The notes: generated by a model from the sequence alone, not told the origin. DNA of 32,000 nucleotides from an uncultured Chloroflexia bacterium (GCA_963704755.1 OY969938.1:4170001-4202000), one strand, 5' to 3'; numbered from the stretch's first letter, positions 1,882 through 30,142 are shown. A program made the numbers and translations.

Positions 1882-1910
1882 TTTTGGCTTTTTATATATC
1901 AGGATTCATT

Positions 1911-2022
1911 GTGACTGCTCAGCCTGGCGGGGAAAAAAACCGAATTTGAGGTGCATGCGGGGGCTCCGCCCCCGCATGCACCTCAAATTCGGGAACTTCT
2001 TAACAGGAGCCTGAGTAGTTAC
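1911..2022. mobile_element. MITE-like nested-palindrome element, copy A (112 bp)
   Basis: Termini are GTGACTGCTCAGCC...GGAGCCTGAGTAGTTAC. The central hairpin 1940-1992 has a perfect 25-bp stem (CCGAATTTGAGGTGCATGCGGGGGC, loop TCC). The flanking 8-mers GATTCATT and AATTCTTT match 6/8. It shares its architecture with copies B, D and H. Confidence 0.7.
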
Positions 2023-2031
2023 AATTCTTTT

Positions 2032-2982
2032 TTAAATAACCAGGTTTTCGTACAGCATTTCCAGGGTCAGGTTAGGCACAACTGCGCCGGAAACAGTCAG
2101 GGTCATCGACGCAGCGGTGACACCCAGGCGAATGGCTTCATCGAGGTCCAGGTCGTTGAGCAGGGCGAAAATCGCCGTGGCCGTCATCGCATCCCCCGCA
2201 CCGGTGCTGTCCTTGATTTTGGTCAACATGGCCGGGACGTGCCCGCTGGTCTCGGAGGAGGCGTAACAAACACCCGCTTCGGCAATCTGGATCACGGCGA
2301 TGCCGGTGCCCTGGCGGACCAGTTCACGGGCCGCCTGTGAAGCGCTGGTGCGCCCGGTCACGGTGACCTGGTTCTCGAGCAGTACATTCGTTTCGGTGCG
2401 GTTCGCGGTCAGCATCGCGATTTCTGGGATATACGGGCGCAAGCCGGCCGCCAGCGATGTCGAGGTGGCATCGGCAAAGACGGAAACTTTGGCGCGTTTG
2501 GCCAGGGAGAATACGGTTTTCAAGGCAGCCGGGGTCAAATTGGAGTCGGTGAAGATCACACTGGCTCCTTTGAACAGGTCGAAACGGTCCCGAAGCACCT
2601 GGGGGGTGATGCAGGTGGACACGGCAATATCGTCCAGGGCGTAGTTCAAATCGCCATCTTCGTTCAAGACCGCCAGGTAAGCCCCGGTGCGGTAATCTTC
2701 CACCCGCAGGCAAGGGCTGACGTCCACTCCGGCGGCGGCGGCTTGATTAAGGATCTGCCGGCCGATAAAATCGTTGCCGACGGCGCTGATCAGGCGCACG
2801 GGCTGGCCGAGCCGTGCCAGGGTCTCGGCAATATTGCGGGCTACACCGCCATACGAGGTGGTTACTTTAGCCGGATTGGAAGTCCCTGGTTCAGGGAGGC
2901 TGGCCGGGCGGCCAACTACGTCCAGGGTTGCAGTGCCGATCACGAGAACCGGCTTGTCCTTTTGGAAATGGGAAATATCCAT
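2032..2982 (-). CDS. PfkB-family carbohydrate/nucleoside kinase (ribokinase fold; pseudouridine-kinase-like)
   Basis: 316 aa. It has an N-terminal VIGTATLDV motif, GGVARNIAETLARLG, and the C-terminal PfkB signature DSTGAGDAMTA. Confidence 0.85.
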   Translation of the reverse strand: MDISHFQKDKPVLVIGTATLDVVGRPASLPEPGTSNPAKVTTSYGGVARNIAETLARLGQPVRLISAVGNDFIGRQILNQAAAAGVDVSPCLRVEDYRTGAYLAVLNEDGDLNYALDDIAVSTCITPQVLRDRFDLFKGASVIFTDSNLTPAALKTVFSLAKRAKVSVFADATSTSLAAGLRPYIPEIAMLTANRTETNVLLENQVTVTGRTSASQAARELVRQGTGIAVIQIAEAGVCYASSETSGHVPAMLTKIKDSTGAGDAMTATAIFALLNDLDLDEAIRLGVTAASMTLTVSGAVVPNLTLEMLYENLVI

Positions 2983-3166
2983 AGCGATCCTGTTCTTTTG
3001 TCCTTGAACCGTAAGAGATGGTAGGAATTTTACCAGAAGCGCAGGTCAAACATCGCGCCGGGCCGGGATAAAGCGGGTGATTTATGTCACCAACCGGGAA
3101 ATTCTTTACGTTTAGGTAAAAATAGCCCCTGGCTGGATTGGTGTATATGATTTTCTTATCTCCTTA

Positions 3167-3175
3167 TGCTAAAAT
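3167..3175 (+). promoter_or_regulatory. Candidate extended -10 element (TGCTAAAAT) upstream of the proline dehydrogenase gene
   Basis: A TGnTAAAAT match lies 46 nt upstream of ATG 3221. Sequence pattern only. Confidence 0.3.
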
Positions 3176-3220
3176 CAATTTACTTGCGGGAAAATCCTTC
3201 CGAGGAGAAACCAACTAAAT

Positions 3221-4180
3221 ATGTTGCGCTCTTTCTTCATTGCTCTTTCGAAAGCGGCCTGGGCTCAACGGACCATCACCCATTGGAAGTTCGCCTGGCG
3301 GGCGGCCTCGCGGTTTATCGCCAGCGAGCGTGTGGATGAAGCCCTCGAAGTAGTCAAGCAATTGAATGGCCAGGGAATTTTTGCTACCCTGGACCACCTG
3401 GGGGAGAACACAACCTCATTGGCTGAAGCACAGCAGGCTACCGATGAGATTGTGGCCATCCTGGAGGCGATTGCGGCGCAAGGGTTACGTTCGAACGTCT
3501 CCGTCAAGCTGTCGCAATTGGGCCTGAGCCTGGATCCGCAGGCGGCGTACCAAAACCTGAAGCGTATCCTGGACGAAGCCCGCCTGCACAAAAACTTCAT
3601 CCGGGTGGACATGGAAGATTCGGCCGTTTGCCAGGTGACCCTGGATCTGGTCCGGCAGGCGCGAGAAGACGGCTATGACAACGTGGGCACGGTAATCCAG
3701 TCTTACCTCTTTCGCAGCGAGCAGGACGTGCATGACCTGGCCGCTCACAGGATTCCGGTAAGGTTGGTGAAAGGCGCCTACAAAGAACCGGCCCAGGTCG
3801 CTTACCCGCGCAAAAAAGATGTCGATGACAGCTTCGATCGCCTGACCAATATCCTGATCCAGGCTGAAATGGAGAGTAGGCAAGGAGATCTCCGCCCGGA
3901 TGGTCATTTCCCGCCGCTGACCGCGGTGGGCAGCCATGACTTGAACCGTATCCGCCTGGCCGAGGAAACCGCGGCCAGGGTTGGCCTACCCAAAGAGGCC
4001 TTGGAATTCCAGATGCTGTATGGCATCCGGCGCGATTTGCAGCGTGAGCTGGTCGAAAAGGGTTACCCGGTGCGCGTGTACGTGCCCTTTGGGACGCGTT
4101 GGTACCCTTATTTCATGCGCAGGCTGGCCGAACGGCCGGCCAATGTATGGTTCTTTATCTCGAATTATTTCCAGGGCTAA
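3221..4180 (+). CDS. Proline dehydrogenase (monofunctional PRODH)
   Basis: 319 aa with motifs VKLSQLGL, IRVDMEDS, VIQSYLFRSEQD, RLVKGAYKEP, GSHD, EFQMLYGIR and a C-terminal YVPFG..WYPYFMRRLAERPANVWFF. Confidence 0.9.
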   Translation: MLRSFFIALSKAAWAQRTITHWKFAWRAASRFIASERVDEALEVVKQLNGQGIFATLDHLGENTTSLAEAQQATDEIVAILEAIAAQGLRSNVSVKLSQLGLSLDPQAAYQNLKRILDEARLHKNFIRVDMEDSAVCQVTLDLVRQAREDGYDNVGTVIQSYLFRSEQDVHDLAAHRIPVRLVKGAYKEPAQVAYPRKKDVDDSFDRLTNILIQAEMESRQGDLRPDGHFPPLTAVGSHDLNRIRLAEETAARVGLPKEALEFQMLYGIRRDLQRELVEKGYPVRVYVPFGTRWYPYFMRRLAERPANVWFFISNYFQG

Positions 4181-4192
4181 AAGCAAACCATT

Positions 4193-4927
4193 ATGCCGGA
4201 AGAATCAACTCGTCCCCTGGCAGTCGTGACCGGCGCATCGCTGCGGATTGGTAAGGCGATTGCGTTGGAATTGGCCGCCCGGGGATATGCCATTGGCCTG
4301 CACTACCATACCTCGCAAAGCGCTGCTCAACAAACCGCAGCGGAAATCGAAGCCCTGGGCAGCCGGGCCATTTTGCTCGAAGCCGATTTGGGCGACCCGG
4401 CTCAAATCGAGCGGATTTTCGCACAGGTCGCTGCGATTCCGGGGAAGTTAGGCGTTCTGGTCAACTCGGCCTCGTCGATGCCTGCCGGGGACCTGCGCGA
4501 AACGACCCTGGAGGAATGGGACCGGGTGCTGGATTTGAACTTGCGCGCCCCCTGGCTGTGCGCTAAGGCAGCGGCGCACCTGATGGAAGATTCTGGCGGG
4601 GTTATCATCAATATTACCGACAGCAGCCTGCAAAAGGCCTGGGCCAAATACCCGCTCTATCAAATCAGCAAGACCGGGCTGGAAGCGCTGACCCGCAGCC
4701 TGGCGCGGACACTGGCCCCGGCCATCCGGGTCAATGCGGTGGCGCCGGGCCTGATCCAACCCGCGGATGGTTTTCCCGAAGAGGAATGGCAGCGCCTGGC
4801 CGGACGCACACCACTGGGCCGAACGGGCAGCCCGCAGGCGGTCGCCCAGGCGGTCGCATTCCTGATCGAAAACGGCTACATTACCGGCGAAACCCTGGCC
4901 GTGGATGGTGGCTATCGCTTAACCTGA
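4193..4927 (+). CDS. SDR-family oxidoreductase (pteridine-reductase-like short-chain dehydrogenase)
   Basis: 244 aa. It has the TGASLRIGKAIALELA Rossmann motif, YxxxK (YQISK) and a VNAVAPG segment. Confidence 0.85.
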   Translation: MPEESTRPLAVVTGASLRIGKAIALELAARGYAIGLHYHTSQSAAQQTAAEIEALGSRAILLEADLGDPAQIERIFAQVAAIPGKLGVLVNSASSMPAGDLRETTLEEWDRVLDLNLRAPWLCAKAAAHLMEDSGGVIINITDSSLQKAWAKYPLYQISKTGLEALTRSLARTLAPAIRVNAVAPGLIQPADGFPEEEWQRLAGRTPLGRTGSPQAVAQAVAFLIENGYITGETLAVDGGYRLT

Positions 4928-4946
4928 TAGTACAATTGATTTTGCT

Positions 4947-5426
4947 ATGAAAAAATTCTTGCAGACACCGCTCGGGGAATTCCTGAGAATATCACAACCG
5001 GTCACATTGTTTCTGGGTCTGTTTTTCTACAGCCTGGGAGCAGGAGTAATCATCTATCGCGGTGGGATTGTCGATTGGGCCATTTTTTGGATTGGCCTGA
5101 TGAGCGTCCTTTTGCTGCAGTTGACTGCGATTTATCTGAATGCGTTTTTCTCGCGCATGCGTATTCCGCGCACCCAAAAGCCGGATGACCATCGCAATAA
5201 CCTCGATAACCCGAATAACTCTTCGCGAAACGGTTTCTTGTTGGCTGCGGTGTCGTCTCTGACGGCCGTGGCCATGCTGACCGTGCTGCTGAATGCCCGC
5301 GGGGCAATTTCGCTTTCTTCGGCTTTACTGTTTGGTTTGGCTTTGGTGTTGATTTTCGCTTACGCCGTACCGCCATTCCGGTTGATCTACTCGGGATACG
5401 GCGAGCTGGTCCAGGGGCTGTTTTAA
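4947..5426 (+). CDS. UbiA-superfamily-like polytopic membrane protein, fragment 1 of 2 (interrupted at the G-run 5414-5417)
   Basis: 159 aa with several TM helices. It ends ...VPPFRLIYSGYGELVQGLF*, and the sensible continuation (AVLTILIPALGYLLQ...) is in the -1 frame. The family call rests on overall topology and the PPxRL...GxGE pattern, so it is only moderately secure. Confidence 0.55.
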   Translation: MKKFLQTPLGEFLRISQPVTLFLGLFFYSLGAGVIIYRGGIVDWAIFWIGLMSVLLLQLTAIYLNAFFSRMRIPRTQKPDDHRNNLDNPNNSSRNGFLLAAVSSLTAVAMLTVLLNARGAISLSSALLFGLALVLIFAYAVPPFRLIYSGYGELVQGLF

Positions 5427-5482
5427 CCATCCTGATCCCGGCCCTCGGGTACCTTCTGCAGGATGCGAACCTGTTCCAGGCG

Positions 5483-6515: not shown

Positions 6516-6562
6516 GTCACTACTCAGGCTAGTTCGGAAATTTTGGGTAGCTGAGTAATTAC
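6516..6562. mobile_element. MITE-like element, miniature copy F (47 bp, central hairpin absent)
   Basis: GTCACTACTCAGGCT...GTAGCTGAGTAATTAC. The flanking 8-mers are AAGAGGAA (6508-6515) and AAGAGGAG (6563-6570), matching 7/8. Confidence 0.55.
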
Positions 6563-6661: not shown

Positions 6662-7222
6662 TCAGCCGGTCTGCAAGGCCGCGTGCGGCCGTAACTGGCA
6701 GGCAATCGCCTTGGGAAGCGGCAAAGCTGCATTGAAGGTGATCACTTCCGCGTCGATAGCTTTTTGGCCCAGGGTGGCTGCCACTGAAATGCGATGGTGG
6801 CCATCGCGGATGAAATAGTAATCGCCGATCTGGATCAGTTCCACCGGGGGCAGCGGGCAGCCGCTTAAGTACGCCTGTGCAAGGGCAACCCAGCGGTCCC
6901 GAGAGGCCATTCTAACCGGGTGGAAGTTGAGGTCGAAATCTTGTTTGCGCCCTTCGCTGCCGATGATCAGGTCGATGGGCACAGCCTTGAAACCGCTGTA
7001 ATAACTGCCCTGGACGTGCAGTCCAGCCTTCACTTCATTGAGGTCCAGCAGCCACATGGGCTGGCGTAAGATCATCGCTTTGAAGCGGGTGATTTTGCCA
7101 TGTTCCAGGGTACTGCGGAAGAAATTCATAGCCGACATTAACTGGCGTTGGCGGATGGCTTTCTCACTGTTTTGAAAGTCATTTATCTCTATTTCTAATA
7201 GGTTGGTCTTGAAATCGATCAT
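6662..7222 (-). CDS. ParB/Srx-fold (ParB-like nuclease domain) protein
   Basis: 186 aa. The C-terminal half contains ELIQIGDYYFIRDGHHRISVAATLGQKAIDAEV, with the DGHHR box typical of ParB N-terminal/sulfiredoxin-fold domains. I do not recognise the N-terminal ~100 aa. An AGGAGA RBS lies 7 nt upstream of ATG 7222. Confidence 0.7.
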   Translation of the reverse strand: MIDFKTNLLEIEINDFQNSEKAIRQRQLMSAMNFFRSTLEHGKITRFKAMILRQPMWLLDLNEVKAGLHVQGSYYSGFKAVPIDLIIGSEGRKQDFDLNFHPVRMASRDRWVALAQAYLSGCPLPPVELIQIGDYYFIRDGHHRISVAATLGQKAIDAEVITFNAALPLPKAIACQLRPHAALQTG

Positions 7223-7251: not shown

Positions 7252-7288
7252 GTAACTACTCCCCTACTGAACTTGCCTGAGCTGTTAC
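7252..7288. mobile_element. MITE-like element, miniature copy G (37 bp)
   Basis: GTAACTACTCCCCTACTGAACTTGCCTGAGCTGTTAC is flanked by a perfect 8-bp direct repeat TCAAGATC (7244-7251 and 7289-7296). Confidence 0.65.
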
Positions 7289-9787: not shown

Positions 9788-9818
9788 GTTTTACACGCGG
9801 CATCCCTGCGTGTAAAAC
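9788..9818 (-). terminator. Hairpin (11-bp stem GTTTTACACGC/GCGTGTAAAAC) downstream of the LuxR regulator gene
   Basis: Inverted repeat read directly, in the spacer after the stop of the minus-strand kinase/regulator operon. Confidence 0.45.
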
Positions 9819-9831
9819 CGGATTTAAAAAA

Positions 9832-9872
9832 ACAAAGTGATTGTGCGGGCTTAGCCCGCGCAATCACTTTGT
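9832..9872 (-). terminator. Long hairpin (19-bp stem, one G-T pair, loop TTA) 25 nt downstream of the LuxR regulator stop
   Basis: ACAAAGTGATTGTGCGGGC-TTA-GCCCGCGCAATCACTTTGT was read directly. It is flanked by A-run/T-run context. Confidence 0.55.
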
Positions 9873-9896
9873 TCTCGGCAATTTTTGGGGGATGGG

Positions 9897-10532: not shown

Positions 10533-10534
10533 CC

Positions 10535-11194
10535 TTAATTCTCCCTTACAGCTATCGTATCTTGCCAGAAGATCGTAATTTGCGCGCCTTTTCCCGGCCG
10601 GCTGTCAATTTCCAGCCTGGCCTGGATCGCTTCGGCCCGTTCGCGCATGATCTGTAGGCCCAGGTGGTCGGGCGGGACCAGGGCCGGGTCGAACCCGCGG
10701 CCGTTGTCGCGGATCGATAGCCTGACACCATCCCCATAAGCAATTTCGACGACGACCTGGTTGGCCTTGGCATGTTTGACCACGTTATTGAGGGCTTCCT
10801 GGGCAATGCGGTACAGGCTGACCTGTACGTTGGGGGGCAGCTTGGCCTGTCCCTGGACGCAAAACTGGATCGGCAGGCGCGCCCGACCAATCTGCGATTC
10901 GCACAACTGGCGCAGGAGATCACTTAAGGGTATCTCGACCAGGGCGTTCGGGCGCAGCTCCACCAGCAAGGTACGCATTTCAGCCAGGGCGCCGCGGGTC
11001 AACTGGCGCAGTTCTTCCAGCCGCTTGAGCCCCTCGGACTGGTTCATTTCCCATATGTCTGGCAGGACTTCGGCGATCAGACTGGCGGAAAAGAGCGTCT
11101 GGGTGACTGCGTCGTGCAGGTCGCGGGCCAGACGCGTGCGTTCGGCCAGGACGGCCTCTCCGGCCGCTTTTTCGGCCAGGGCCTGCTCGAACTC
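10535..11194 (-). CDS. Histidine-kinase core (HisKA_3 H-box + HATPase_c), the C-terminal part of the propeller sensor kinase, separated from it by a frameshift
   Basis: The track ORF 10535-11047 starts at an internal Met. The same frame read upstream gives EFEQALAEKAAGEAVLAERTRLARDLHDAVTQTLFSASL, which contains the H-box (His codon at 11114-11116). No ATG/GTG/TTG precedes it, so it cannot be an independent gene. Downstream motifs are EALNNVVKHA, DNGRGFD and GLQIMRERA. Confidence 0.85.
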   Translation of the reverse strand, partial: EFEQALAEKAAGEAVLAERTRLARDLHDAVTQTLFSASLIAEVLPDIWEMNQSEGLKRLEELRQLTRGALAEMRTLLVELRPNALVEIPLSDLLRQLCESQIGRARLPIQFCVQGQAKLPPNVQVSLYRIAQEALNNVVKHAKANQVVVEIAYGDGVRLSIRDNGRGFDPALVPPDHLGLQIMRERAEAIQARLEIDSRPGKGAQITIFWQDTIAVREN

Positions 11195-13856
11195 GTTTGC
11201 GCTGTTCGATCTCCTGGTTGAGCGCCAGGGTGCGTTCCTTGACCCGCTGCTCTAACTCCAGACGTTTATTTTGCACATCGTTGATGCGCCATTCGATACC
11301 GCCGATCAACAGCGCGGCCAGTGCGGCCAGGCAGGTCAACTGGAACCATAACATTTGCCAGATAGGCGGGGTCACGCTGATGGGGATAGAGATACCGGTC
11401 TCATCCCAGACCCCATCGCTGTTCGCGGCTTTGACTTTGAAGACATAGTTGCCGCCCGGCAGGTTGGTGTAATTGGCGTAATGGCGGTTGCCGGCCTGGA
11501 TCCAGCCCCGGTCGAAACCTTCCAGGGTGTACTCGTACTGGTTTTTCTGCGGCGCATGGTAATCCAGGGCGGCGAATTCGAACGAAATGAAGTTTTGCTT
11601 GTAAGAGAGATCGACCGGCTTTGTACCGGTCGTATCGATCGGGTAGGGTTGGTTGAAGACGGTGAAATTGGTGACGACGACCGGCGGGGGCACCGGGTTG
11701 GAGACGATTTCCAGCGGGTTGAACACCGACATGCCGTTGATGCCGCCAAAATAGAGGGTGCCATTGTGGGCTTTCATATAGGCATTCGAGCTGAACTCGT
11801 TGCTTTGCAGACCGTCGCTGCTGTAATAGTTTGTGAAGGTGCCTTTCAATGTGTCATATTTGGACAGGCCGTTGTTGGTCGTGATCCACAGATTGGCCAT
11901 GTCGTCTTCCAGAATGCCCAGGACAGTCGCGTTGGGCAGCCCGTCTTTTTCCAGGAAATGCTGGAAACCGCCCGTCTGCGGATCGAAGCGGTTCAGGCCG
12001 CCTTCGGTGCCCACCCAGGTGGTGCCTTCGCTGGCATTCAGGATCGGCCAGACCAAGTCCTGGCTGAGGCTGTTGGGGTCATTCGGGTCGTGGCGATAAA
12101 TCTGGAAAGAAGCTTTAGCCGGATCGAAATTGTCGGTGTCGTTCAGGTCCAGGCGGTTCAAGCCGCCGCCCCAGGTGCCAATCCAGAGGACATTATGCGT
12201 ATCCAAGGACAGGCCAACGACCTGGTTGTAGGAAAGCAAATCGGCTTTGGCCGGGTCATTGCGATAATGGATGAACACCCCCGTTTTGGGGTTGAACCGG
12301 TCCAGCCCATCGAACGTGCCCAACCAGAGCTGGCCGGAACGGTCCTGCAAGATAGGGGTGATGTTGTCGTTGATCAGGCTGTTGGGGTTATTTGGGTCGT
12401 GGGGATAATGGGTGAACTGGCCAGTGGAGGGGTCGTAGCGGTCCAACCCGGAACCCATCGTACCGATCCAGAGGGTCCCTTGCAGGTCGGTCAGCAGGCC
12501 TAAGACCAGGTTGTTGGCCAGGCTGTTGGGGTTGTCCGGGTCATGCATAAAGCGCTCGAAGCGGCCGGTGGCGGGGTGAAAAAGATCCAACCCGCTGCCC
12601 CAGGTGCCGACCCAAATGTCACCATTAGGAGCTTCGGCGAAGGCGCCGATGGTGCTGCCACTCAGGCTGCTGGGGTTGTTGGGGTCGTTGCGGTACAGGC
12701 GGAAACGGGAACTTGCCAGGGAGAGCTTATTGATGCCGTTGTTGGCGCTGCCGGCCCACAAGATGCCGGAGCGGTCCAGGCACAGCGACCAGATGGTGTT
12801 GGGGCTGATGCTTTCCGGGACCAGCGGGTTATTCTTGAAATGATGGAACACACCCGGCTGGGATAACTGCATCACGTCCAGACCGTCCTGCCAGGTACCA
12901 ACCCACAGCAGGCCGGAATCCGCATCGCCGATCATCGAGATCAGGTTATCCGATGCCAGGCTGGAGGAGATATCGGGATTGTTGGTGTAATGGACGATCT
13001 TTCCGCTGGCCGGGTCGAGGTGGTCCAGGCCACTCCCTTCCAGGCTGTAACCGCCGGTGGCAATCCAGAGAGTACCGTCTGCGGCGGGATAAATGCCGGA
13101 TATGTTGTCGCTGGCCAGGCTGGCCGGGTCATCCGGGTTGTGGGTGAAGCGTGTGAAGGTTTGGGCAGCCGGATCGAAGCGGTTGAGGCCGTTTCCTTCC
13201 AGGCCGAAGGCGCCCGTGCCAACCCACAGGTTGCCTTGCGGATCTTCGGCAAGTTTGGAAATAACATCGCTGCTCAGGCTGTGGGGATCCTTTGCGTCGC
13301 TGCGATAATGGATGAATCCGCCGGTAGAAGGGTTGAACAAATCCAGGCCGCCCGAGGTCCCAACCCACATCCGGCCGTGCGAATCCCACAGGAGCGATGA
13401 AACGATACCCGAAGATAAGCTGGCAGGGTTCGCTGGGTCCGGAACGTAGCGGGTGAAATTGTCGCTGGCCGGGTCGAGGATACTTATCCCGCCGCCCCAG
13501 GTGCCCACCCACAAGCGACCCTGGCCGTCTTCCTGCAGCGAGAGGACGCTGTTGTAGCCGATAGATTCAGGGTCGTCCGGGTTGTTTTTGTAAACCTTGA
13601 AGTTGTAACCGTCGTAGCGATTAAGGCCGTCCTGGGTACCGAACCAGATGAAACCCTGCTGATCCTGATAGATGACCAGTCCGGCGTTCTGGGACAGGCC
13701 ATCGTCGCTGGTGAGGTGCTCGAAATGGTTCAGGCTGCCCGGGTAATAGGTGAACGTTGTATCGTCGCCGGCGGCATGGGCTAACGAAGTGCCTGGGCAA
13801 GCAAAAATAATCAGGGCAATACATGCGCAGAAAAGAATGCCTTTTAATCGGGTCAT
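10980..13856 (-). CDS. Periplasmic two-component-regulator propeller / Y_Y_Y sensor domain plus TM helix, the N-terminal part of a sensor histidine kinase
   Basis: It has a signal peptide, then more than 14 repeats of the ...NxVxxLxxDxxGxLWIGTxxGLNRFDPxTGxFxHY... blade motif. These are followed by a Y_Y_Y-like segment (YEYTLEGFDRGW...YVFKVKAANSDGVW), one TM helix and a coiled coil. After ...LNQEIEQRK the frame becomes Arg/Pro/Gly-rich nonsense. Confidence 0.85.
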   Translation of the reverse strand: MTRLKGILFCACIALIIFACPGTSLAHAAGDDTTFTYYPGSLNHFEHLTSDDGLSQNAGLVIYQDQQGFIWFGTQDGLNRYDGYNFKVYKNNPDDPESIGYNSVLSLQEDGQGRLWVGTWGGGISILDPASDNFTRYVPDPANPASLSSGIVSSLLWDSHGRMWVGTSGGLDLFNPSTGGFIHYRSDAKDPHSLSSDVISKLAEDPQGNLWVGTGAFGLEGNGLNRFDPAAQTFTRFTHNPDDPASLASDNISGIYPAADGTLWIATGGYSLEGSGLDHLDPASGKIVHYTNNPDISSSLASDNLISMIGDADSGLLWVGTWQDGLDVMQLSQPGVFHHFKNNPLVPESISPNTIWSLCLDRSGILWAGSANNGINKLSLASSRFRLYRNDPNNPSSLSGSTIGAFAEAPNGDIWVGTWGSGLDLFHPATGRFERFMHDPDNPNSLANNLVLGLLTDLQGTLWIGTMGSGLDRYDPSTGQFTHYPHDPNNPNSLINDNITPILQDRSGQLWLGTFDGLDRFNPKTGVFIHYRNDPAKADLLSYNQVVGLSLDTHNVLWIGTWGGGLNRLDLNDTDNFDPAKASFQIYRHDPNDPNSLSQDLVWPILNASEGTTWVGTEGGLNRFDPQTGGFQHFLEKDGLPNATVLGILEDDMANLWITTNNGLSKYDTLKGTFTNYYSSDGLQSNEFSSNAYMKAHNGTLYFGGINGMSVFNPLEIVSNPVPPPVVVTNFTVFNQPYPIDTTGTKPVDLSYKQNFISFEFAALDYHAPQKNQYEYTLEGFDRGWIQAGNRHYANYTNLPGGNYVFKVKAANSDGVWDETGISIPISVTPPIWQMLWFQLTCLAALAALLIGGIEWRINDVQNKRLELEQRVKERTLALNQEIEQRKRVRAGPGRKSGRRGRPGRTHASGPRPARRSHPDALFRQSDRRSPARHMGNEPVRGAQAAGRTAPVDPRRPG

Positions 13857-14095: not shown

Positions 14096-14566
14096 TTAAT
14101 CAGCGGGGACGACAGCGTTGGAAAATTGGCCGGCAATCTTGCTGACTTTGATCATATTGGCATTGTGATCGGCCAGGGTTTTCAGGGTTGTCGAAGCCAT
14201 GTGCTCGACAATTTTGGTCTGCAGATCGTCCCACATGAATTGGGACGAGCAGGTATCCTGGCGTACACAATTATCGTTGCAATCCAGGCAAGGCGTAACG
14301 CAGATTGGCCCTTCGAGGACTTCGGCAACTTTGAGTACGGTGACCTGTTCGGGAGAATGGTTAAGGCGTAAACCTCCGCGCGGGCCGGGGGAGGCCTTGA
14401 TCAGGCCAGATTGCATCAAGGTGTGTGCAATTTGATGCAGGAAAGGCAGTGGGATTTGTAGCTGTTCTGATAATTGCGCGCTGGGGATAGGCAGATCGTT
14501 ATTAGGTACCGACAAAGCGATCATTAACTGCAAACCATAATCCAGCCTGCGGCTTATTCGAAACAT
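14096..14566 (-). CDS. Rrf2-family transcriptional regulator (IscR/NsrR-like) with a Cys-rich putative cluster-binding segment
   Basis: 156 aa. Motifs are MFRISRRLDYGLQLMIAL, a wHTH with PFLHQIAHTLMQSGLIKASPGPRGGLRL, and the Cys segment CVTPCLDCNDNCVRQDTC. Confidence 0.9.
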   Translation of the reverse strand: MFRISRRLDYGLQLMIALSVPNNDLPIPSAQLSEQLQIPLPFLHQIAHTLMQSGLIKASPGPRGGLRLNHSPEQVTVLKVAEVLEGPICVTPCLDCNDNCVRQDTCSSQFMWDDLQTKIVEHMASTTLKTLADHNANMIKVSKIAGQFSNAVVPAD

Positions 14567-15195
14567 GTGCTCACCTCTAACTAGAGAATTCTTGGTAACT
14601 GCCCAGGCGGTTGCCTGTACGGATATGATTTAAAAAGAAAATGGATACGCCTGAGAACGTACGCCCCCACGCACACCCATTCTTTTTATTCTCTTACCAG
14701 CCCAGGTTGAGCGGTTACTATTTTTATCAAGAATAACGGTTGGGTAACTTTTTAGTAAGTGACAAATATACCACTTCGGCATGTAGATATTCTTAATTAT
14801 GACAAAGTATATACACTTTCGACCTTGAGAGAGTTCATTAATTTACATTCTTGCTCTATATTGGCGATAAAGCCGGAATAATTGCATTTCAGGTCCGAAA
14901 ATCTATCCAACACCATGTTTTTCTTATCTTTACCTGGTAGGTGTCGCTGCGAGCGAATTTTACGGAGCGATCTCAATGCTTGCAGGTTATCGCGATGGCC
15001 GGCGCTGCCGAAAGCGCCATACCGCTAGAATAGCGTCGGCGGCAGTAGTGACTTTAACATGGCTTTTTATCTGACGGAGAACGGCTCTTTCCGTTTATAA
15101 TTTTGCCGATTGACAATATCGCAATTGCCGAGGGGAAGACCACGGCAATTTGTATCGGGTAGATTAGTATCTTACGAACACGCATAGGAGAGGAA

Positions 15196-15624
15196 ATGAA
15201 CAAACCGGTTAGTGTAATTCTGATTCTGCTCGTTTTTGGCGCGGTGTTTCTGGCAGCTTGCAGCGGCGGCGGAGCGACGGCCACATCCCTGCCGCCAGTC
15301 CCCAGCGAGTACCAGGGAAAAACCGATCCTTACACCGGGGATGCAACGGCGATTGCGGCCGGGAAAGATATTTTCGAGGCCAACTGCGTGACCTGTCACG
15401 GTGAAACCGGCGAAGGCAATGGCCCGGCAGCTTCGGCGCTGGACCCAAAGCCGGCGAATTTAAGCGCCGTGGTCAACTCGCTGGATGATGATTATATGTT
15501 CTGGCGGATTTCGGAAGGTGGGGGCATGGCGCCTTTCAATTCGGCGATGCCGGCCCAAAAAGGGAATTTGAGCGAAGACCAAATCTGGCAGGTGATTAGT
15601 TACGTCAAGACCCTGGCAAAGTAA
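15196..15624 (+). CDS. Class I c-type cytochrome, probable lipoprotein
   Basis: 142 aa. It has a signal peptide with lipobox LAAC, the heme-binding motif CVTCHG and a distal Met region (MPAQ). An AGGAGAGG RBS lies upstream. Confidence 0.85.
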   Translation: MNKPVSVILILLVFGAVFLAACSGGGATATSLPPVPSEYQGKTDPYTGDATAIAAGKDIFEANCVTCHGETGEGNGPAASALDPKPANLSAVVNSLDDDYMFWRISEGGGMAPFNSAMPAQKGNLSEDQIWQVISYVKTLAK

Positions 15625-15629
15625 ATATT

Positions 15630-15680
15630 GGGGCAATAAAAAAGGCGGCGTGCCAAACACGCCGTCTTTTTTATTGCCCC
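15630..15680 (+). terminator. Strong hairpin terminator after the cytochrome c gene (23-bp stem, one G-T pair)
   Basis: GGGGCAATAAAAAAGGCGGCGTG-CCAAA-CACGCCGTCTTTTTTATTGCCCC begins 6 nt after the stop codon. Confidence 0.7.
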
Positions 15681-15814
15681 GAGAAACGGAAGACCCATAA
15701 CCAGACGAACAGAAATTCAAGCGGTTTCGTGAGGCGCTCCCGCGAGGATGCGATTGCCCGGCCATTAAGTACTTCGAACGAGACGAGTGAAAAGAATCGG
15801 GGTAAAATCAATTC

Positions 15815-19483: not shown

Positions 19484-19583
19484 GAAACTACTCAGCTACT
19501 GTGAAAGAGGGGGTATTTTTTTCGCGCGCGAATCGCGTGAAAAAAATTGCCCTCCAAATTTCAGAACCAGCCTGAGGATTAAC
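19484..19583. mobile_element. MITE-like element, copy H (100 bp) carrying a different central hairpin
   Basis: The left end GAAACTACTCAGCTACTGTGAAAGA matches copy B's GTAACTGCTCAGCCCAACTGTGAAAGA. The right end AGCCTGAGGATTAAC matches AGCCTGAGTAGTTAC at 12/15. The centre is ATTTTTTTCGCGCG-CGAAT-CGCGTGAAAAAAAT. The flanking 8-mers GTTCTGCC and GTTTTGGC match 6/8. Confidence 0.6.
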
Positions 19584-22386: not shown

Positions 22387-22434
22387 TTTATTGTTTTCGA
22401 AACCGGCATATATGCCGGTTTCGAAAACAATAAA
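22387..22434. repeat. Perfect 48-bp palindrome (24-nt arms)
   Basis: I checked TTTATTGTTTTCGAAACCGGCATA|TATGCCGGTTTCGAAAACAATAAA base by base. It lies between convergent ctaA/ctaB and rsfS. Confidence 0.85.
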
Positions 22435-22770: not shown

Positions 22771-22958
22771 AGCATTAACGATACCGCGGGCTACTTCAAT
22801 TGGATTCAGGTTTCACCTCAAAAAGATAGATTTGGATACCGGGTCCAGCGGCCCGGCCAGAGAAAATTTTAACATATTTTCTGTTCGGGCAGGTAAACTT
22901 GCACCCGGCTTAGGGGTAAAGAAGTTTCACCGCAGAGTACGCTGAGAAGAAATTTTAT

Positions 22959-23021
22959 AAAGAGCTAATTTGAGGTGTTTGCGGAGGCTTCCCCTCCGCA
23001 AACACCTCAAATTAGCTCTTT
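22959..23021. repeat. Stand-alone copy (C) of the MITE central hairpin: perfect 29-bp stem, loop CTTCC
   Basis: AAAGAGCTAATTTGAGGTGTTTGCGGAGG-CTTCC-CCTCCGCAAACACCTCAAATTAGCTCTTT. Its core is near-identical to the copy B hairpin. No GTAAC termini are present. The right arm overlaps the last codons and the stop of thpR. Confidence 0.85.
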
Positions 23022-23599
23022 TTTAAGGATATCTCGGCCAGGCGGGTGTAGATGGGGCCGTTGGGGCGCAGGTCGCTGCGGAAGAGGGTGATACCGCCCG
23101 CGTTGAACTCACCCAGCAGGCCAACCTGGACCTGCCCCAGGGCGGCCGCTATCCGGGCAACTTCCTCGCCGCGGGCCGACTGCTGCACCCGGCCCAGGGT
23201 CAGGTGGGGCGAAAATCCGCGCGCTTCCGGCTGGAACCCGGCCTGGGCCGCCTGAGCCTCTACCAGGCGGTACAGCCCTTCCAGGGCCGGCGGGGCTTGC
23301 AGCCCGGTCCAAACCACCCGCGGGCGGCGGAGGTTGGGGAAGGCCCCCAGGCCGGTCACCTGGATCGGGAAGGGGACCACGGATTGTAGGGCCGGTTTTA
23401 GCCCGGCGACGAGCCTGTTCAAGCTCTGCGGAGCCGCATCGCCCAGGAATTTGAGCGTCAGGTGGGTGTTTTCAGTGGCTACCCAGCGGATACCGCTCAA
23501 GCGCAGGGCCTGCAGGCGTTGGGTCAACCCGGCAAGCTGCTGCCGGATGGGTTCCGGGAGTTCGATGGCGACGAAGGCGCGGATCAGGTTAGGGGGCAT
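23012..23599 (-). CDS. thpR: RNA 2',3'-cyclic phosphodiesterase (ThpR/LigT, 2H phosphoesterase)
   Basis: 195 aa with the two H-x-T-x motifs, HLTLKFLG and HLTLGRV. Confidence 0.9.
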   Translation of the reverse strand: MPPNLIRAFVAIELPEPIRQQLAGLTQRLQALRLSGIRWVATENTHLTLKFLGDAAPQSLNRLVAGLKPALQSVVPFPIQVTGLGAFPNLRRPRVVWTGLQAPPALEGLYRLVEAQAAQAGFQPEARGFSPHLTLGRVQQSARGEEVARIAAALGQVQVGLLGEFNAGGITLFRSDLRPNGPIYTRLAEISLKKS

Positions 23600-23703: not shown

Positions 23704-23774
23704 AAGAGGAATTACTGTTTAAAAAGCAATGGCCTAAAGCAGATCGGCCCGGTCTCCAGACCGAGGTCGCTCTT
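23704..23774 (+). repeat. Direct repeat unit 1 (~71 bp) of the non-coding island
   Basis: AAGAGGAATTACTGTTTAAAAAGCAATGGCCTAAAGCAGATCGGCCCGGTCTCCAGACCGAGGTCGCTCTT recurs at 23871-23942 with roughly 85% identity by eye. The 35-nt core GCCTAAAGCAGATCGGCCCGGTCTCCAGACCGAGG is identical in both. Confidence 0.85.
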
Positions 23775-23870: not shown

Positions 23871-23942
23871 AAGAGGAATTGTTCTCCAAAAAGACAATTG
23901 CCTAAAGCAGATCGGCCCGGTCTCCAGACCGAGGCCGCTCTT
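23871..23942 (+). repeat. Direct repeat unit 2 (~72 bp) of the non-coding island
   Basis: AAGAGGAATTGTTCTCCAAAAAGACAATTGCCTAAAGCAGATCGGCCCGGTCTCCAGACCGAGGCCGCTCTT. See unit 1. Confidence 0.85.
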
Positions 23943-24261
23943 CAATGCAGTTATTTCAAGCCAATGGGCTGGTTCGCTGGCGTAATGGGTGAAAAGGCGT
24001 CGGTCTTTCAAGCCCATAGGCTGGCCGGCCGGTGCTTTTTGCCTCCTCCTGGCCTCCCCCAAAATCCAAAGTGCGGATTTTAGGGGAGGAATTTGGCTCT
24101 TCCCTCCAAATCGGTTTTTGATTTGGGGGGAAGCAGGGAAGGGGGGCGGAGCGCTGGTTTTACAAGCCAAGGGGCTGGTTGGCTGGCGCCGAAGAGAACT
24201 CGAATTAATCCACCCGTTTAGGGTAAAATTGTTCCCGTGCAGGTGAAAGGAGAACTCTTCT

Positions 24262-25813: not shown

Positions 25814-25925
25814 GTGGCTGCTCAAGCTTATGTTCAAAAGGTCTCGAATTTGACGTGTTTGCTGGGGCGAAGCCCTAGCAAACACGTCAAATTCGGTTTC
25901 CTTACCCGAACGGTTGAACCGTTAC
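25814..25925. mobile_element. MITE-like element, copy D (112 bp)
   Basis: GTGGCTGCTCAAGC...CCGTTAC. The central hairpin 25845-25895 has a 24-bp stem with a single G-T pair (CGAATTTGACGTGTTTGCTGGGGC). The flanking 8-mers TTAATATC and GAAATATC match 6/8, with the last six identical. Confidence 0.6.
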
Positions 25926-25957
25926 GAAATATCCATACCTGGGAGAAAAGTGTCATT

Positions 25958-27001: not shown

Positions 27002-27007
27002 AATAGC

Positions 27008-27065
27008 GGCGAGTATAAAAAAGAGCCGCGCGGTTACAACCGCGCGGCTCTTTTTTATACTCGCC
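27008..27065. terminator. Bidirectional terminator: perfect 26-bp stem between convergent ltaE and the GGDEF gene
   Basis: GGCGAGTATAAAAAAGAGCCGCGCGG-TTACAA-CCGCGCGGCTCTTTTTTATACTCGCC, checked pair by pair. A/T runs inside both arms give U-tracts in either direction. Confidence 0.75.
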
Positions 27066-27073
27066 GGAAGATA

Positions 27074-28660
27074 CTAGGATTCTACCCGTGGCTCGATCTG
27101 GTCACGGCCGCGTTCTTTGGCCCGGTAGAGGCGCCGGTCGGCCAGATCGACCAGCTCTTCGATGCTGGCGCACTCGCTGGGCAGCTCCGCGATACCCTGG
27201 CTGATGGTCGGGCAGGGCACAATATGATTCTCGCGATCTATGATCGTGAGATGAGTCAGGGACGCACAAATGCGGTTCGCCACCTGGTAGGCCTGGGCGA
27301 TACCGGTATCCGGCAAGAAGATGGCGAACTCTTCGCCACCCCAGCGGCCAACCCGGTCGGACTTGTGGATGCTGCGCTTGATTTCGCGGGTCAGTTCGAC
27401 CAGCACCCGGTCGCCAACCAGGTGCCCGTAGGTGTCGTTGTAGATTTTAAAACGATCGATATCCAACATAATCAGGCTCAGTGGGGTCTGGAATGTCGAG
27501 GCTTCACGCGCGTGGAAATCCAGCTCGGATAGGAACGCGTTGTGGTTCAACGCCCCGGTCAGCGAGTTGAGCTTCGAGCGGGTTTCGACCTCGGTGTGGT
27601 GGACGGCGTTGGTGAGTGCGACCGAGGCTTGTTGGGCAATATTGACCAGTAAATCCAGGTCGCCGTCATCGAAGGCGTAGCGGTCGTAGCTGGCCACAGC
27701 GATGATCCCGAATACGGCGCCTTCGCTTTCCAGGGGACAACCCATCCAGGACAGGCTGGTCATGGGCTGGCCTACGATAGTGTAGTCAGAGGAGCTGCCG
27801 GATGCCGGTAACAAGTTTTCGATCAAAAGCGGTTTTTTCGAGCGGATGACCTTTTCTGCCAGGGTATCCTTCATGGGAATATCGCTGCTGGGAAAGAATT
27901 CACCATCGTCATAGAGCAGCTCCAGGTGAACCGAATCGCCGCGCACCATACCGAGATAATAAGTATCCGCCGAAAGGGCAGATTGGATCGTCGAGGTGAC
28001 CAGGGCGATGACCTGGTGCATTTCCAATGAAGAGGACAGGCTGCGAGCGACGTTGTTGAGTGTTTGTAGCCGGTGAGTCTCCCGCCCAAGCGAATTTCCC
28101 AGCCGCACGAGTGTTTCGGTGATCAATATCGATCCGATGGGAACAAAGAAAAAGTCCACGTTGACCAGGGTAGGGGCGTACGAAATTATCCGGCTGTGGA
28201 CGAGGTATTCGGCCAGGATGGCGATGAAGATATAGCCGTAGGCCTGCCAGCGGCCAACGATCACGGCCAGCGAGATCAACAGGCACAGATTGATGATCAG
28301 AAATGGCGCGCCAAAGGTTTGGCTCTGGATCCAGGCGATAGGGATGGCGACCAGGTAGTTCAATCCTACCAGCAGCCGGCGTGCGCCGGGATGGTGGGTG
28401 ATGAGGGGCACGAAATAAAAAAAGACCCCTACAAAATAAACCAAAAGGCCAATTACAATCCAGGGAACGACCTTTTGGGTAGTTGCGAAAATACCATGGA
28501 CGCTGGCGTAAATGATCCAACTCAAATTTAGGAGGATTTCGACCACAAAAATGGGCAGGGTTAGCTGCTGCTGTTTGTTTAAAGAAAAGGGGAGTGAAAT
28601 GTGGAAACGTTTTTTCATCGGGCACTTTACCAGTAAATATATAATATCTACTGTGGTCAA
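27074..28660 (-). CDS. Membrane-bound diguanylate cyclase (multi-TM N-terminus, GAF, GGDEF)
   Basis: 528 aa. It has about 6 N-terminal TM helices, a GAF-like middle region and a GGDEF domain with active site RWGGEEFAIFL. The position of the inhibitory RxxD site reads HKSD. Confidence 0.9.
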   Translation of the reverse strand: MTTVDIIYLLVKCPMKKRFHISLPFSLNKQQQLTLPIFVVEILLNLSWIIYASVHGIFATTQKVVPWIVIGLLVYFVGVFFYFVPLITHHPGARRLLVGLNYLVAIPIAWIQSQTFGAPFLIINLCLLISLAVIVGRWQAYGYIFIAILAEYLVHSRIISYAPTLVNVDFFFVPIGSILITETLVRLGNSLGRETHRLQTLNNVARSLSSSLEMHQVIALVTSTIQSALSADTYYLGMVRGDSVHLELLYDDGEFFPSSDIPMKDTLAEKVIRSKKPLLIENLLPASGSSSDYTIVGQPMTSLSWMGCPLESEGAVFGIIAVASYDRYAFDDGDLDLLVNIAQQASVALTNAVHHTEVETRSKLNSLTGALNHNAFLSELDFHAREASTFQTPLSLIMLDIDRFKIYNDTYGHLVGDRVLVELTREIKRSIHKSDRVGRWGGEEFAIFLPDTGIAQAYQVANRICASLTHLTIIDRENHIVPCPTISQGIAELPSECASIEELVDLADRRLYRAKERGRDQIEPRVES

Positions 28661-28697
28661 GAATGTGTTTGGTTTTAGATATATTTTGGTTTAATTT

Positions 28698-28808
28698 GTA
28701 ACTGCTCAGCCCAACTGTGAAAGACCCCGAATTTGAGGTGTTTGCGGGGGCAAAGTCCCCGCAAACACCTCAAATTCGGGAACTTCATAACAGAGCCTGA
28801 GTAGTTAC
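28698..28808. mobile_element. MITE-like element, copy B (111 bp), the cleanest copy
   Basis: GTAACTGCTCAGCC...GAGCCTGAGTAGTTAC. The central hairpin 28726-28780 has a perfect 24-bp stem and a 7-nt loop. A perfect 8-bp direct repeat TTTAATTT flanks it, at 28690-28697 and 28809-28816. Confidence 0.75.
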
Positions 28809-28927
28809 TTTAATTTTATGATTCATTAATCGACTGAATTTGGGAAAACTTTGCAGGTAAGGGCCGGAATCGCCGACTTAATTTTTCCGGAAAGGAATTG
28901 GCTGCAGGCTGGCGCATGGATGACCTC

Positions 28928-28936
28928 TGATATAAT
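28928..28936 (+). promoter_or_regulatory. Candidate extended -10 element (TGATATAAT) upstream of the PNP gene
   Basis: A TGnTATAAT match lies ~105-125 nt upstream of the candidate start codons. Sequence pattern only. Confidence 0.3.
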
Positions 28937-28971
28937 ATTAAGGTAACGAATTAATCTATCTTGCGAAGTGT

Positions 28972-29022
28972 GGTGTTTATAATTATTTCGCGTGCGAAGC
29001 ACGCGAAATAATTATAAACACC
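28972..29022. repeat. Perfect palindrome (24-bp stem, loop GAA) in the putative 5' leader of the PNP gene
   Basis: GGTGTTTATAATTATTTCGCGTGC-GAA-GCACGCGAAATAATTATAAACACC, checked base by base. Confidence 0.85.
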
Positions 29023-29041
29023 TTCATCGAAAAAACGATCC

Positions 29042-29890
29042 GTGGAGGTGGATGTGAGTGAGTGGATTACCCTTTCCCAAATCGATCAAGCCAGCCAATA
29101 TATAAAAGAACGTATCCACACCCGGCCGGAAACTGCCCTGGTGCTCGGCTCCGGGTTGAATGGCCTGGCCGATATGGTGGACCAGGCTGATTTTATCGAC
29201 TATAAAGATATCCCGAATTGGCCAGTCTCGACGATCGAAGGGCATGTTGGCCGGTTGGTCATCGGCCTGTTGGACGGCATCCCGGTGATGGTGATGCAGG
29301 GCCGCACTCATTACTACGAAGGGTATACCATCGGCCAGGTGACTTTCCCGGTGCGGGTCATGCAGCGCATGGGCATCAAAACTCTGATCCTGACCAATGC
29401 CGCCGGCGCAATCAACCCGGATTACCAGCCAGGGGATGTGATGCTGATCCAGGACCACATTAACCTGGTGGGTATGACCGGTGAAAATCCCTTGCGCGGT
29501 CCCAACCTGGATGAATTCGGTCCGCGTTTTCCGGATATGAGCCAGGTTTATGACAGCGAACTGCGCCTTTTGTGCCACGAGATCGCCCAGGCCGAGGGAA
29601 TCACCCTGCGGGAAGGGGTGTACGTATGGCTGTCGGGGCCATCTTTTGAAAGCCCGGCCGAACTGCGCTTTTTAAGATCCATCGGGGCCGATGCAGTGGG
29701 GATGTCAACGGTACCGGAAACAATCGTCGCCCGGCATGGGGGCACACGGGTTTTAGGCCTGTCCGGAATCTCCAACAAAGCCAACCTGGATGGCAGCACC
29801 CAGACCACCCACCAGGAAGTGTTGGAAGCCGGAAAACTTCTCGTTCCAAAGTTGACCCGATTGATTTGGGGGTTGCTCGCAAGAATTTAA
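29042..29890 (+). CDS. punA: Purine nucleoside phosphorylase (trimeric PNP/PunA family)
   Basis: Motifs are ALVLGSGLNGLAD, HVGRLVIG, GRTHYYEGY, LTNAAGAIN, GPRFPDMS, GPSFESPAE and GADAVGMSTVPE. GTG 29054 is a likelier start than 29042, because GGAGG at 29044-29048 lies 5 nt upstream of it. Confidence 0.9.
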   Translation: MEVDVSEWITLSQIDQASQYIKERIHTRPETALVLGSGLNGLADMVDQADFIDYKDIPNWPVSTIEGHVGRLVIGLLDGIPVMVMQGRTHYYEGYTIGQVTFPVRVMQRMGIKTLILTNAAGAINPDYQPGDVMLIQDHINLVGMTGENPLRGPNLDEFGPRFPDMSQVYDSELRLLCHEIAQAEGITLREGVYVWLSGPSFESPAELRFLRSIGADAVGMSTVPETIVARHGGTRVLGLSGISNKANLDGSTQTTHQEVLEAGKLLVPKLTRLIWGLLARI

Positions 29891-29891
29891 G

Positions 29892-30030
29892 GTTTCTGTG
29901 TCAGATTTGCCGGATGATTTTCCCTCCTCGGGCTCGTACAAAAAGGATCCGAATTTGAGGCGTTTGCCGGTACGAAGCATCCGCAAGCCGCTCCAATTTG
30001 GGTTTTTTGGCCGTTGGGCCAAACCATTAC
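29892..30030. mobile_element. Decayed MITE-like copy E (boundaries uncertain)
   Basis: From ACAAAAAGGATCCGAATTTGAGGCGTTTGCCGG... to ...GGGTTTTTTGGCCGTTGGGCCAAACCATTAC it aligns by eye with copy D (...TCAAAAGGTCTCGAATTTGACGTGTTTGC...CGGTTTCCTTACCCGAACGGTTGAACCGTTAC). The hairpin arms no longer pair well and I found no flanking duplication. Confidence 0.35.
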
Positions 30031-30142
30031 GAATAATCGTTGTGAGAATGTACAAGAGTCCGTTGGCGCAGGCTTCAGGCGTGACAATCGATCGGCTTAT
30101 GCAGCGCTAACATGATCCCTGGCCGGTGGTTCAACTGAAATT

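Follow-up and report, generated by a model that had tools for sequence, protein, structure and literature searches.

Short palindromic repeats in a Chloroflexia genome share their ends with ISBst12-group (IS66) insertion sequences

Introduction

The Correia elements of Neisseria, Nezha, Chunjie, and ERIC are short, non-coding, intergenic repeats that reach high copy numbers, have inverted-repeat ends, and are flanked by target duplications. Bacterial elements of this type, known as MITEs (for miniature inverted-repeat transposable elements), can carry promoter or terminator activity. Here we describe a family of repeats from a 32-kb stretch of DNA from an uncultured Chloroflexia bacterium (GCA_963704755.1 OY969938.1:4170001-4202000), which we will call the window. 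The family is real: it has about 9 copies in 32 kb, or roughly one per 3.5 kb, and they are non-coding. We think it very probable that these repeats are MITEs with the ends of the ISBst12 group of IS66-family insertion sequences (ISs), and that they are moved by a transposase of that group acting in trans.

The hallmark of the IS66 family is ends that start with GTAA together with an 8-bp target duplication. ISDge4 of Deinococcus geothermalis belongs to the ISBst12 group of this family and has a single transposase of 449 amino acids, terminal inverted repeats GTGACTACTCAGCA / GTAACTGCTCAGCA, an 8-bp direct repeat, and nine copies; its transposition has been observed experimentally (PMC12898284). 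One IS66/ISBst12 element lies on plasmid pHTA426 of Geobacillus kaustophilus (PMC8024623). An earlier examination of the window (the sequence-only reading) had described the repeats as non-autonomous transposable elements with terminal inverted repeats and 8-bp duplications and had predicted an IS66-like mobilizer.

Conserved ends and 8-bp target duplications

We scanned 185,579 species-representative genomes with a pattern that consists of one exact end, a gap of 65-95 nt, and a loosely specified second end. The pattern matched at least 119 stretches, and our sample of copies was drawn from the 119 that were listed and from the window. Among the matches listed, most are from metagenome-assembled genomes (MAGs) of Chloroflexota (Anaerolineae, Thermoflexales, Caldilineales, and Dehalococcoidia), and others are labelled as Verrucomicrobiae (on contigs of up to 737 kb), Elusimicrobia, Acidobacteria, Ignavibacteriales, Armatimonadota, Deltaproteobacteria, Parabeggiatoa, or Methylobacter.

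Paired end matches in these sequences gave 154 unique copies with flanks. The 8 nucleotides just outside the two ends were identical for 84 of the 154 copies and agreed at 7 of 8 positions for 27 more; if flanks are swapped between copies, only 0.06 perfect matches are expected. The mean identity of the flanks was 6.6 of 8 at offset 0 and about 2.0-2.9 of 8 if one flank alone was shifted (a partial signal persists if both flanks shift in compensating directions). Exact duplications of 6, 7, 10, or 11 nt were never seen, those of 4, 5, 9, or 12 nt were seen once each, and the chance-prone lengths of 2 and 3 nt gave 12 and 7. This pattern is the signature of a staggered 8-bp cut. Comparison of the flanking 8-mers with controls was a test that had been set beforehand, and the result bears out the description of the family as a non-autonomous element with 8-bp duplications. 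Furthermore, the duplicated sites are 33% GC, as compared to 55% for the surrounding DNA, and just 14 of the 154 copies lie within an open reading frame (ORF) of at least 150 codons, as compared to 83% of random points. Both observations also fit with transposition.

The ends themselves are strongly conserved. When we pooled 294 ends, positions 1-12 were near-invariant and positions 13-14 showed a strong preference, which gives the consensus GTAACTRCTCAGSC, and nothing further in was conserved. This 14-nt terminal inverted repeat is the only family-wide feature: by their interiors, 131 full-length copies fall into 53 clusters. Thus, of the architecture that was first described from the window, the terminal repeat is shared by the family, while the subterminal boxes are specific to the subfamily of this genome.

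Insertions can also be seen by comparing relatives. In three pairings (L106 against L031, L031 against L106, and L071 against L006), an element is present in one stretch and absent from the orthologous locus of the other, and the differences coincide with the termini, as the transposon hypothesis had anticipated. In the comparison of L106 to L031, deleting the element and one copy of the duplication restores a collinear alignment straight through the site. These cases come from relatives only, as the window copies have no relative at above 90% identity except for one near-identical contig.

Some stretches show more complex arrangements. At L030:744-988, a partial and a full copy are in tandem and the 8-mer ATGAAAAC is present three times, and at L119:4002-4272, an outer pair of ends with the perfect duplication AATTCCGC encloses an extra right end. 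In the MAGs of L031, L106, and L071, intergenic DNA around the MITEs is rich in short tandem motifs such as GATAGT(C/G), AGAGTCAGAGT, TATTCCC, and AGTAGTT (L031:6590-6700, L106:2780-2960 and 4186-4230, and L071:6256-6300).

Full-length insertion sequences with the same ends

The IS on pHTA426 spans positions 14107-15741 of the plasmid (1635 bp), has the ends GTATCTATTCAGCCC / GGGCTGAATAGTTAC, and is flanked by the perfect duplication GACGAGTT. Its one ORF encodes 485 amino acids with the Pfam domains DDE_Tnp_IS66 (PF03050, 1.9e-64), zf-IS66 (PF13005), and DUF6444. Relatives of this transposase are extremely numerous in metagenomes, and all 120 of the relatives that were listed have the same precomputed domains. 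On contigs that encode one of these relatives (P0189), the element is 1598 bp long and its ends, GTAACTGCTCAGCC...GGCTGAGCAGTTAC, have no mismatches to the MITE consensus. The element of another relative (P0259), of 1565 bp, lies on contigs of 72-87 kb and has the perfect duplication CTTTGCTG.

We then considered 80 metagenomic loci that were chosen by protein similarity alone (45-98% identity). A right end was found at 74 of these 80 loci, and both ends were found, within three mismatches, at 59 of them, with a spacing between the ends of 1.43-1.83 kb. The consensus of 135 ends from these protein-selected ISs is GTAACTRCTCAGSC, which is identical to the consensus of the MITEs. Eight of the loci have perfect duplications. 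Furthermore, one of these loci is on a 120-kb contig that contains both a full IS, flanked by the perfect duplication CTTGGAAC, and a 123-bp MITE at a distance of 7.5 kb, whose ends are perfect and whose perfect duplication is TTCCTTTG.

The elements that are bounded by GTAACTRCTCAGSC-type ends have a single ORF of 485-505 amino acids and neither tnpA nor tnpB. So the predicted link to IS66 is correct in that full-length IS66-family elements have the same 14-nt ends and 8-bp duplications, but the partner is of the single-ORF ISBst12 type rather than the tnpA/B/C type that had been suggested.

An IS110-family element of about 1.9 kb (with a DEDD_Tnp_IS110 gene) lies inside the terminal repeat of P0189-type ISs, exactly between GGCTGAG and CAGTTAC. 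It is in the right repeat in six contigs (L141:1675-3569, L144:1674-3568, and also L139, L143, L145, and L148) and in the left repeat in L155 (at about 3217, on the minus strand), and the repeat resumes after it without a duplication. This looks like site-specific targeting of the terminal repeat, in which case the ends of the MITEs could be targets too.

Copies in the window

By direct reading of the window, we found every copy that had been listed by the sequence-only reading at its coordinates. A search with a 12-mer of the terminal repeat also revealed one that had been missed, at 14595-14718. Full elements are 100-124 bp and deleted derivatives are 37-47 bp. The 12-mer GTAACTRCTCAG occurs 13 times with up to two mismatches, while 1.8 occurrences are expected and no shuffled sequence reached 13. 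A profile of the family recovers copies A, B, D, E, and C with nhmmer (E values of 1e-30 to 1e-11), and an independent search for repeats also groups A, B, C, D, and E and shows that D has the opposite orientation to A and B. By their interiors, A and B fall into one cluster with copies of three Anaerolineaceae/Anaerolinea MAGs, and on this basis the source organism may be a member of the Anaerolineaceae.

Copy B (28698-28808, plus strand, 111 bp) is the best preserved: both ends have no mismatches to the consensus and it has the perfect duplication TTTAATTT/TTTAATTT. It is in the divergent region between a GGDEF gene (minus strand) and a purine-nucleoside phosphorylase gene (plus strand). Copy A (1911-2022, plus strand) is a full-length MITE of 112 bp with the ends GTGACTGCTCAGCC and GCCTGAGTAGTTAC, flanking 8-mers GATTCATT/AATTCTTT that match at 6 of 8 positions, and a central hairpin with a perfect stem of 25 bp; it sits between two convergent stop codons. 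Copy D (25814-25925, minus strand, 112 bp) has diverged ends (GTAACGGTTCAACC and GCTTGAGCAGCCAC) and flanks that match at 6 of 8 positions, and it ends 33 nt upstream of the start codon for threonine aldolase. D is also present in a 3.8-kb Logan contig (L001) that is 99.87% identical to the window. Copy H (19484-19583, plus strand, 100 bp) has degraded ends (GAAACTACTCAGC and GCCTGAGGATTAAC) and flanks that match at 6 of 8 positions; it has the left box ACTGTGAAAGA in common with B, and its hairpin is different and imperfect.

The copy at 14595-14718 (124 bp), which lies in a divergent intergenic region, has good ends (GTAACTGCCCAG and TTGAGCGGTTAC) and flanks that match at 5 of 8 positions. 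Its core is unrelated to those of the other copies and does not form a strong hairpin (z = -0.3), which shows that the core is replaceable.

Two copies are miniatures. Copy F (6516-6562, 47 bp) has the two terminal repeats and almost no core, and its flanks (AAGAGGAA/AAGAGGAG) match at 7 of 8 positions. Copy G (7252-7288, 37 bp) has the perfect duplication TCAAGATC/TCAAGATC and lies upstream of the minus-strand gene at 6662-7222, about 30 nt from its start codon. The matches between flanks for B, G, F, A, H, and D are as originally reported. Minimal elements of 28-47 bp, with little beyond two terminal repeats, are also found elsewhere (L181:2502-2537 and L227:1649-1676); such units may still be mobile, or they may be deletions that arose in place.

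Copy E is decayed: its hairpin and both of its ends are mutated and it has no recognizable duplication. It had been described as starting near 29892, but positions 1-107 of the profile align to 30030-29924 (E = 1e-15), which places it at about 29917-30030 and in the opposite orientation (minus strand). Copy C (22954-23026) is a hairpin only, without terminal repeats; its stem is 89% identical to the hairpin of B and there are A/T runs on both sides. We read C as a relic copy or else as a related bidirectional terminator. We do not count a weak match to the profile at 9814-9886 in the family: it lacks terminal repeats and is a terminator-like hairpin.

The central hairpin

Most copies have a long hairpin between their ends. 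The cores of 86% of the 131 full-length copies fold far better than shuffled sequences do (median z = -7.9), and a core typically consists of a perfect stem, about 25 bp long, that is closed by a 3-nt loop. Hairpins are retained across the 53 clusters, while the sequence of the stem varies between clusters and between copies, with both arms changing together. In the subfamily that is found in the window, the central helix has 23 pairs, of which 11 are invariant, 9 have changed on both sides, and none has changed on one side only, and the overall pairing is above that of all 500 shuffles and of all slid controls. A cluster of 26 copies from two other MAGs shows the same concerted changes in the arms.

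Two features of the hairpin point to a palindrome at the level of DNA rather than RNA. First, G-U pairs are nearly absent from the stem, and the changes are from one Watson-Crick pair to another, which argues for a constraint on both strands, and so on DNA rather than RNA. Second, the loop triplet occurs in both orientations. In one cluster, the loop is TTC in 11 copies and GAA in 10, and other clusters have the pairs TCC/GGA, AAA/TTT, and GCA/TGC (the alignments were oriented by the non-palindromic spacers). We infer that a hairpin or cruciform forms in the DNA and that the flipping of the loop reflects repeated inversion or templated copying across it. Quasipalindrome template switching could keep the stem perfect without selection; a more interesting alternative would be selection for a structure that helps the two ends, only about 110 bp apart, to pair.

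We speculate that the palindrome is an active part of the element. DNA of about 110 bp is otherwise too stiff to loop, and the palindrome might extrude as a hairpin or cruciform and thereby join the two 14-bp ends in one transposase complex; or there might be a single-stranded or fold-back intermediate. If so, each round would regenerate a perfect stem and randomize the orientation of the loop, which would explain why the stems are hypervariable and yet perfect, why wobble pairs are absent, and why flip and flop loops are at a ratio of about 1:1 within one genome. We consider this idea to be rather unlikely, and we offer it tentatively.

Proposed transposition by an ISBst12-type enzyme

We propose that a DDE transposase of the ISBst12 group, supplied in trans, would bind both GTAACTRCTCAGSC ends of a MITE, move it, and insert it by a staggered cut, which would yield the 8-bp duplication. 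Insertion would be mostly into AT-rich, intergenic DNA. The core between the ends is replaceable, and its stem would be kept perfect by template-switch correction or by selection, for example because the palindrome brings ends that are about 110 bp apart into reach. By this reasoning, an ISBst12-group transposase probably acts, or acted, in this particular genome.

Several observations weigh against this proposal. We looked for a transposase gene in the window and in the 119 listed MITE-bearing stretches, and we found none. The window copies may be fossils, or they may depend on a partner outside the window; also, the only perfect duplications in the window are those of B and G, and A, D, H, E, and the 14595 copy are decayed. 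Matching flanks were found for only 8 of 51 short metagenomic contigs with the IS, which we assume is due to chimeric assembly of multi-copy repeats. Beyond about 16-18 nt, the ends of the MITEs and of the ISs share no sequence, so that descent of the MITEs from a known IS by internal deletion is not supported. Because the scan pattern called for one perfect 12-mer end, the conservation of the ends in that sample is partly by construction; neither the test of the duplications nor the sample of protein-selected ISs is affected by this. Finally, any role of the hairpin is putative.

The searches for a partner took several forms. In the 119 listed stretches, we looked for pairs of terminal repeats that are 0.2-8 kb apart and have matching flanks, and for generic GTAA/TTAC inverted repeats that are 0.9-3.5 kb apart; both gave nothing but separate MITEs that paired by chance around ordinary genes. 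There were also no matches when we searched the window and the stretches locally by tblastn with five transposases as queries. Six scans of viral sequences and one scan of metagenomes for the terminal repeat joined to a back-translated GRKN...NG motif gave nothing real, because ISBst12-group transposases lack that motif. The four viral matches to this pattern (L123-L126) have an identical 194-nt span and are chance matches to one conserved phage gene. They are a caution that identical spacing among matches can reflect a single conserved gene and not a mobile element. A fragment of an IS66-family tnpC from an E. coli plasmid, which we located by tblastn with a tnpB peptide, matched only enterobacterial relatives when used as a protein query. 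A guessed region of the Sakai chromosome contained no IS66, and an IS66 copy from Ruminococcus, which was found by using a consensus peptide, has different ends.

Alternative explanations

The alternative that survives best would add to the MITE reading rather than replace it: the copies might be domesticated by the host and persist mainly as terminators, insulators, or stabilizers of mRNA. Within the window, A, F, and C lie between convergent genes; B and the 14595 copy lie between divergent genes; and H, D, G, and E lie between co-directional genes, with D and G about 30 nt upstream of start codons. A scan for the terminator consensus (a hairpin followed by a T-rich tail) flagged A (minus strand), C (both strands), and, weakly, D. 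Ordinary terminators of this genome are also long perfect hairpins (15630-15680, 27007-27066, and about 9835-9870), and the conservation of hairpins across clusters and the nearly exclusive intergenic location of the copies would both be expected under domestication. But the intergenic location is also explained by a preference for AT-rich targets together with the loss of insertions in genes. Furthermore, the scan flagged none of B, H, F, G, and the 14595 copy. No T tract follows the hairpin in B, in H, or in most copies of other genomes. Two copies, B and that at 14595, lie where promoters diverge, and G and D are just upstream of start codons. The stem also lacks the G-U pairs that a function in RNA would tolerate, and both orientations occur. 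Overall, we think that domestication of the family is rather unlikely. The earlier suggestion that the copies may double as terminators fits only A (minus strand), C, and weakly D; it does not fit B, H, or the 14595 copy. A and C probably do terminate transcription, and a terminator role is plausible for a minority of the copies, but it is not a property of the family.

It is very unlikely that the repeats encode structured non-coding RNAs or act as cis-regulatory RNAs. In favor of such RNAs are the high stability of the fold, whose changes are compensatory, and the position of some copies in 5' leaders. But no Rfam family reaches its threshold: there were no matches at the gathering score, and the sub-threshold matches were to miRNA-like hairpins only, of which the best scored 38.7 bits against a threshold of 180. 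The repeats also sit in intergenic regions of every kind and in either orientation, and only their 14-nt ends are conserved, the supposed RNA body being replaceable. The lack of G-U pairs in the stem and the flipping of the loop count against an RNA as well. Nor would RNA genes account for 8-bp target duplications and insertion polymorphism.

Several other IS families (ISL3, IS256, IS6, and IS1595) make 8-bp duplications, and no transposase was found beside the MITEs, so one of those families could in principle mobilize them, with the likeness to ISBst12 being a coincidence. We give this very little credence. The 135 ends of ISBst12-group elements were selected by protein and yet give a consensus that is identical to that of the MITEs, and the probability that 14 positions agree by chance is negligible. 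The end motifs known for the other families begin with GG and not with GTAAC, which also counts against ISL3 and IS256 as they had been put forward earlier.

Least credible of all is that these are repetitive extragenic palindromic (REP) sequences, mobilized by a RAYT/IS200-type tyrosine transposase, or integron attC sites. The repeats are indeed hairpin-forming, intergenic, and numerous, with ends that contain AAC...GTT. But attC sites have RYYYAAC...GTTRRRY cores, to which GTTAC does not conform, and they form same-orientation arrays between cassettes, while the repeats are scattered among housekeeping genes at a spacing of about 3-5 kb and point in both directions. REPs are 20-40 bp long, have a head of GTAG or CGTC, and do not duplicate their target (PMC3733652), while the full elements of the window have a length of 100-124 bp, a head of GTAAC, and duplications of 8 bp.

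Other features of the window

The window is ordinary chromosomal DNA with a GC content of about 55%. Its genes include a sugar kinase, proline dehydrogenase, an SDR reductase, a NarX/NarL-like two-component pair, heme o synthase, a GGDEF protein, threonine aldolase, and purine-nucleoside phosphorylase. Two of the window's proteins were checked for cluster mates at 90% identity and had none, and comparing the window's proteins to the MAG stretches that we fetched gave distant matches only.

The window contains further long perfect palindromes, with arms of 23-29 nt, that lack the ends of the family (15630-15680, 22387-22434, 27007-27066, 28972-29022, and about 9835-9870). Several of these are flanked by A/T runs on either side and are located between convergent genes, as bidirectional terminators are, and the window's terminators resemble the core hairpins of the MITEs. 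The palindrome at 28972-29022 is AT-rich and is just upstream of the phosphorylase gene.

There are also repeats of other kinds. In the ORF at 823-1881, 18-nt repeats (families D2 and D3) follow one another in long runs and encode a Pro/Thr-rich repeat protein. The ORF at 10980-13856 (minus strand, 958 amino acids) contains about seven diverged repeats with an 84-nt core at a spacing of 141-168 nt; its single NCBIfam match, to PorZ-like propeller proteins, is weak and below the threshold. A 54-nt direct repeat (23721-23774 and 23889-23942, 93% identical and 168 nt apart) adjoins three copies of a 36-nt repeat at 23947-24188.

Comparison with known systems

The MITE family is new, while the kind of element is well known; what sets the family apart is mainly its density and its unusual central hairpin. 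In the searchable literature, we found no description of MITEs that derive from IS66 or ISBst12, or of this repeat. We have placed a very abundant and previously unrecognized repeat, which occurs in Anaerolineae and other Chloroflexota, in a defined transposon lineage, the ISBst12 group of IS66, and the same repeat is present in MAGs that are labelled as Verrucomicrobiae, Elusimicrobia, Acidobacteria, Ignavibacteriales, Armatimonadota, or Gammaproteobacteria. For annotators, the 14-nt end together with the 8-bp duplication provides a simple rule for masking the repeats, which disrupt the assembly of metagenomes and can be taken for regulatory RNAs. At about one copy per 3.5 kb, the family shapes many promoters, leaders, and 3' ends. 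The mechanism of transposition in the ISBst12 lineage is poorly known, and the core of the MITEs could give a handle on how IS66-type transposases pair their ends. The modular core, the concerted changes in the arms, and the flipping of the loop also provide a natural data set on palindromes in bacterial DNA.

We know of no MITE with a hypervariable, perfect central palindrome whose loop flips. The nearest parallels to the palindrome are the flip/flop hairpins in the terminal repeats of parvoviruses, the inversions of hairpin loops in chloroplast DNA, and the correction of quasipalindromes by template switching in E. coli, in which there are also both orientations of the loop and arms that change together. 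This would be an analogy of mechanism only: there is no sign here of rolling-hairpin replication, and the spacers that flank the palindrome are not palindromic. The Correia elements, Nezha, Chunjie, ERIC, and MITEPsy (a bacterial MITE whose features are tabulated in PMC3189936) have other ends, other duplication lengths, and other IS families as relatives.

Classical IS66 elements, such as the copy on the E. coli plasmid pAVS0456-A, share the DDE_Tnp_IS66 catalytic domain with the ISBst12 group, but they have three genes (tnpA-tnpB-tnpC), are 2-3 kb long, and have GTAAGCG ends; also, the classical transposase has a C-terminal GRKNWLF motif, which the ISBst12-group proteins lack.

The closest match is to the ISBst12 group itself (ISDge4, ISBst12, and ISGka4-like elements). 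These ISs are autonomous, 1.5-1.6 kb long, and encode a transposase of 449-505 amino acids, while the elements of the window reach 124 bp at most, have no coding capacity, and have only the outer 14-18 nt in common with the ISs. Within that short sequence the terminal repeat is the same: it is GTAACTGCTCAGCA / GTGACTACTCAGCA in ISDge4, GTAACTATTCAGCC in the pHTA426 copy, and exactly GTAACTRCTCAGSC in metagenomic members of the group. Both the ISs and the MITEs make duplications of the same length, 8 bp.

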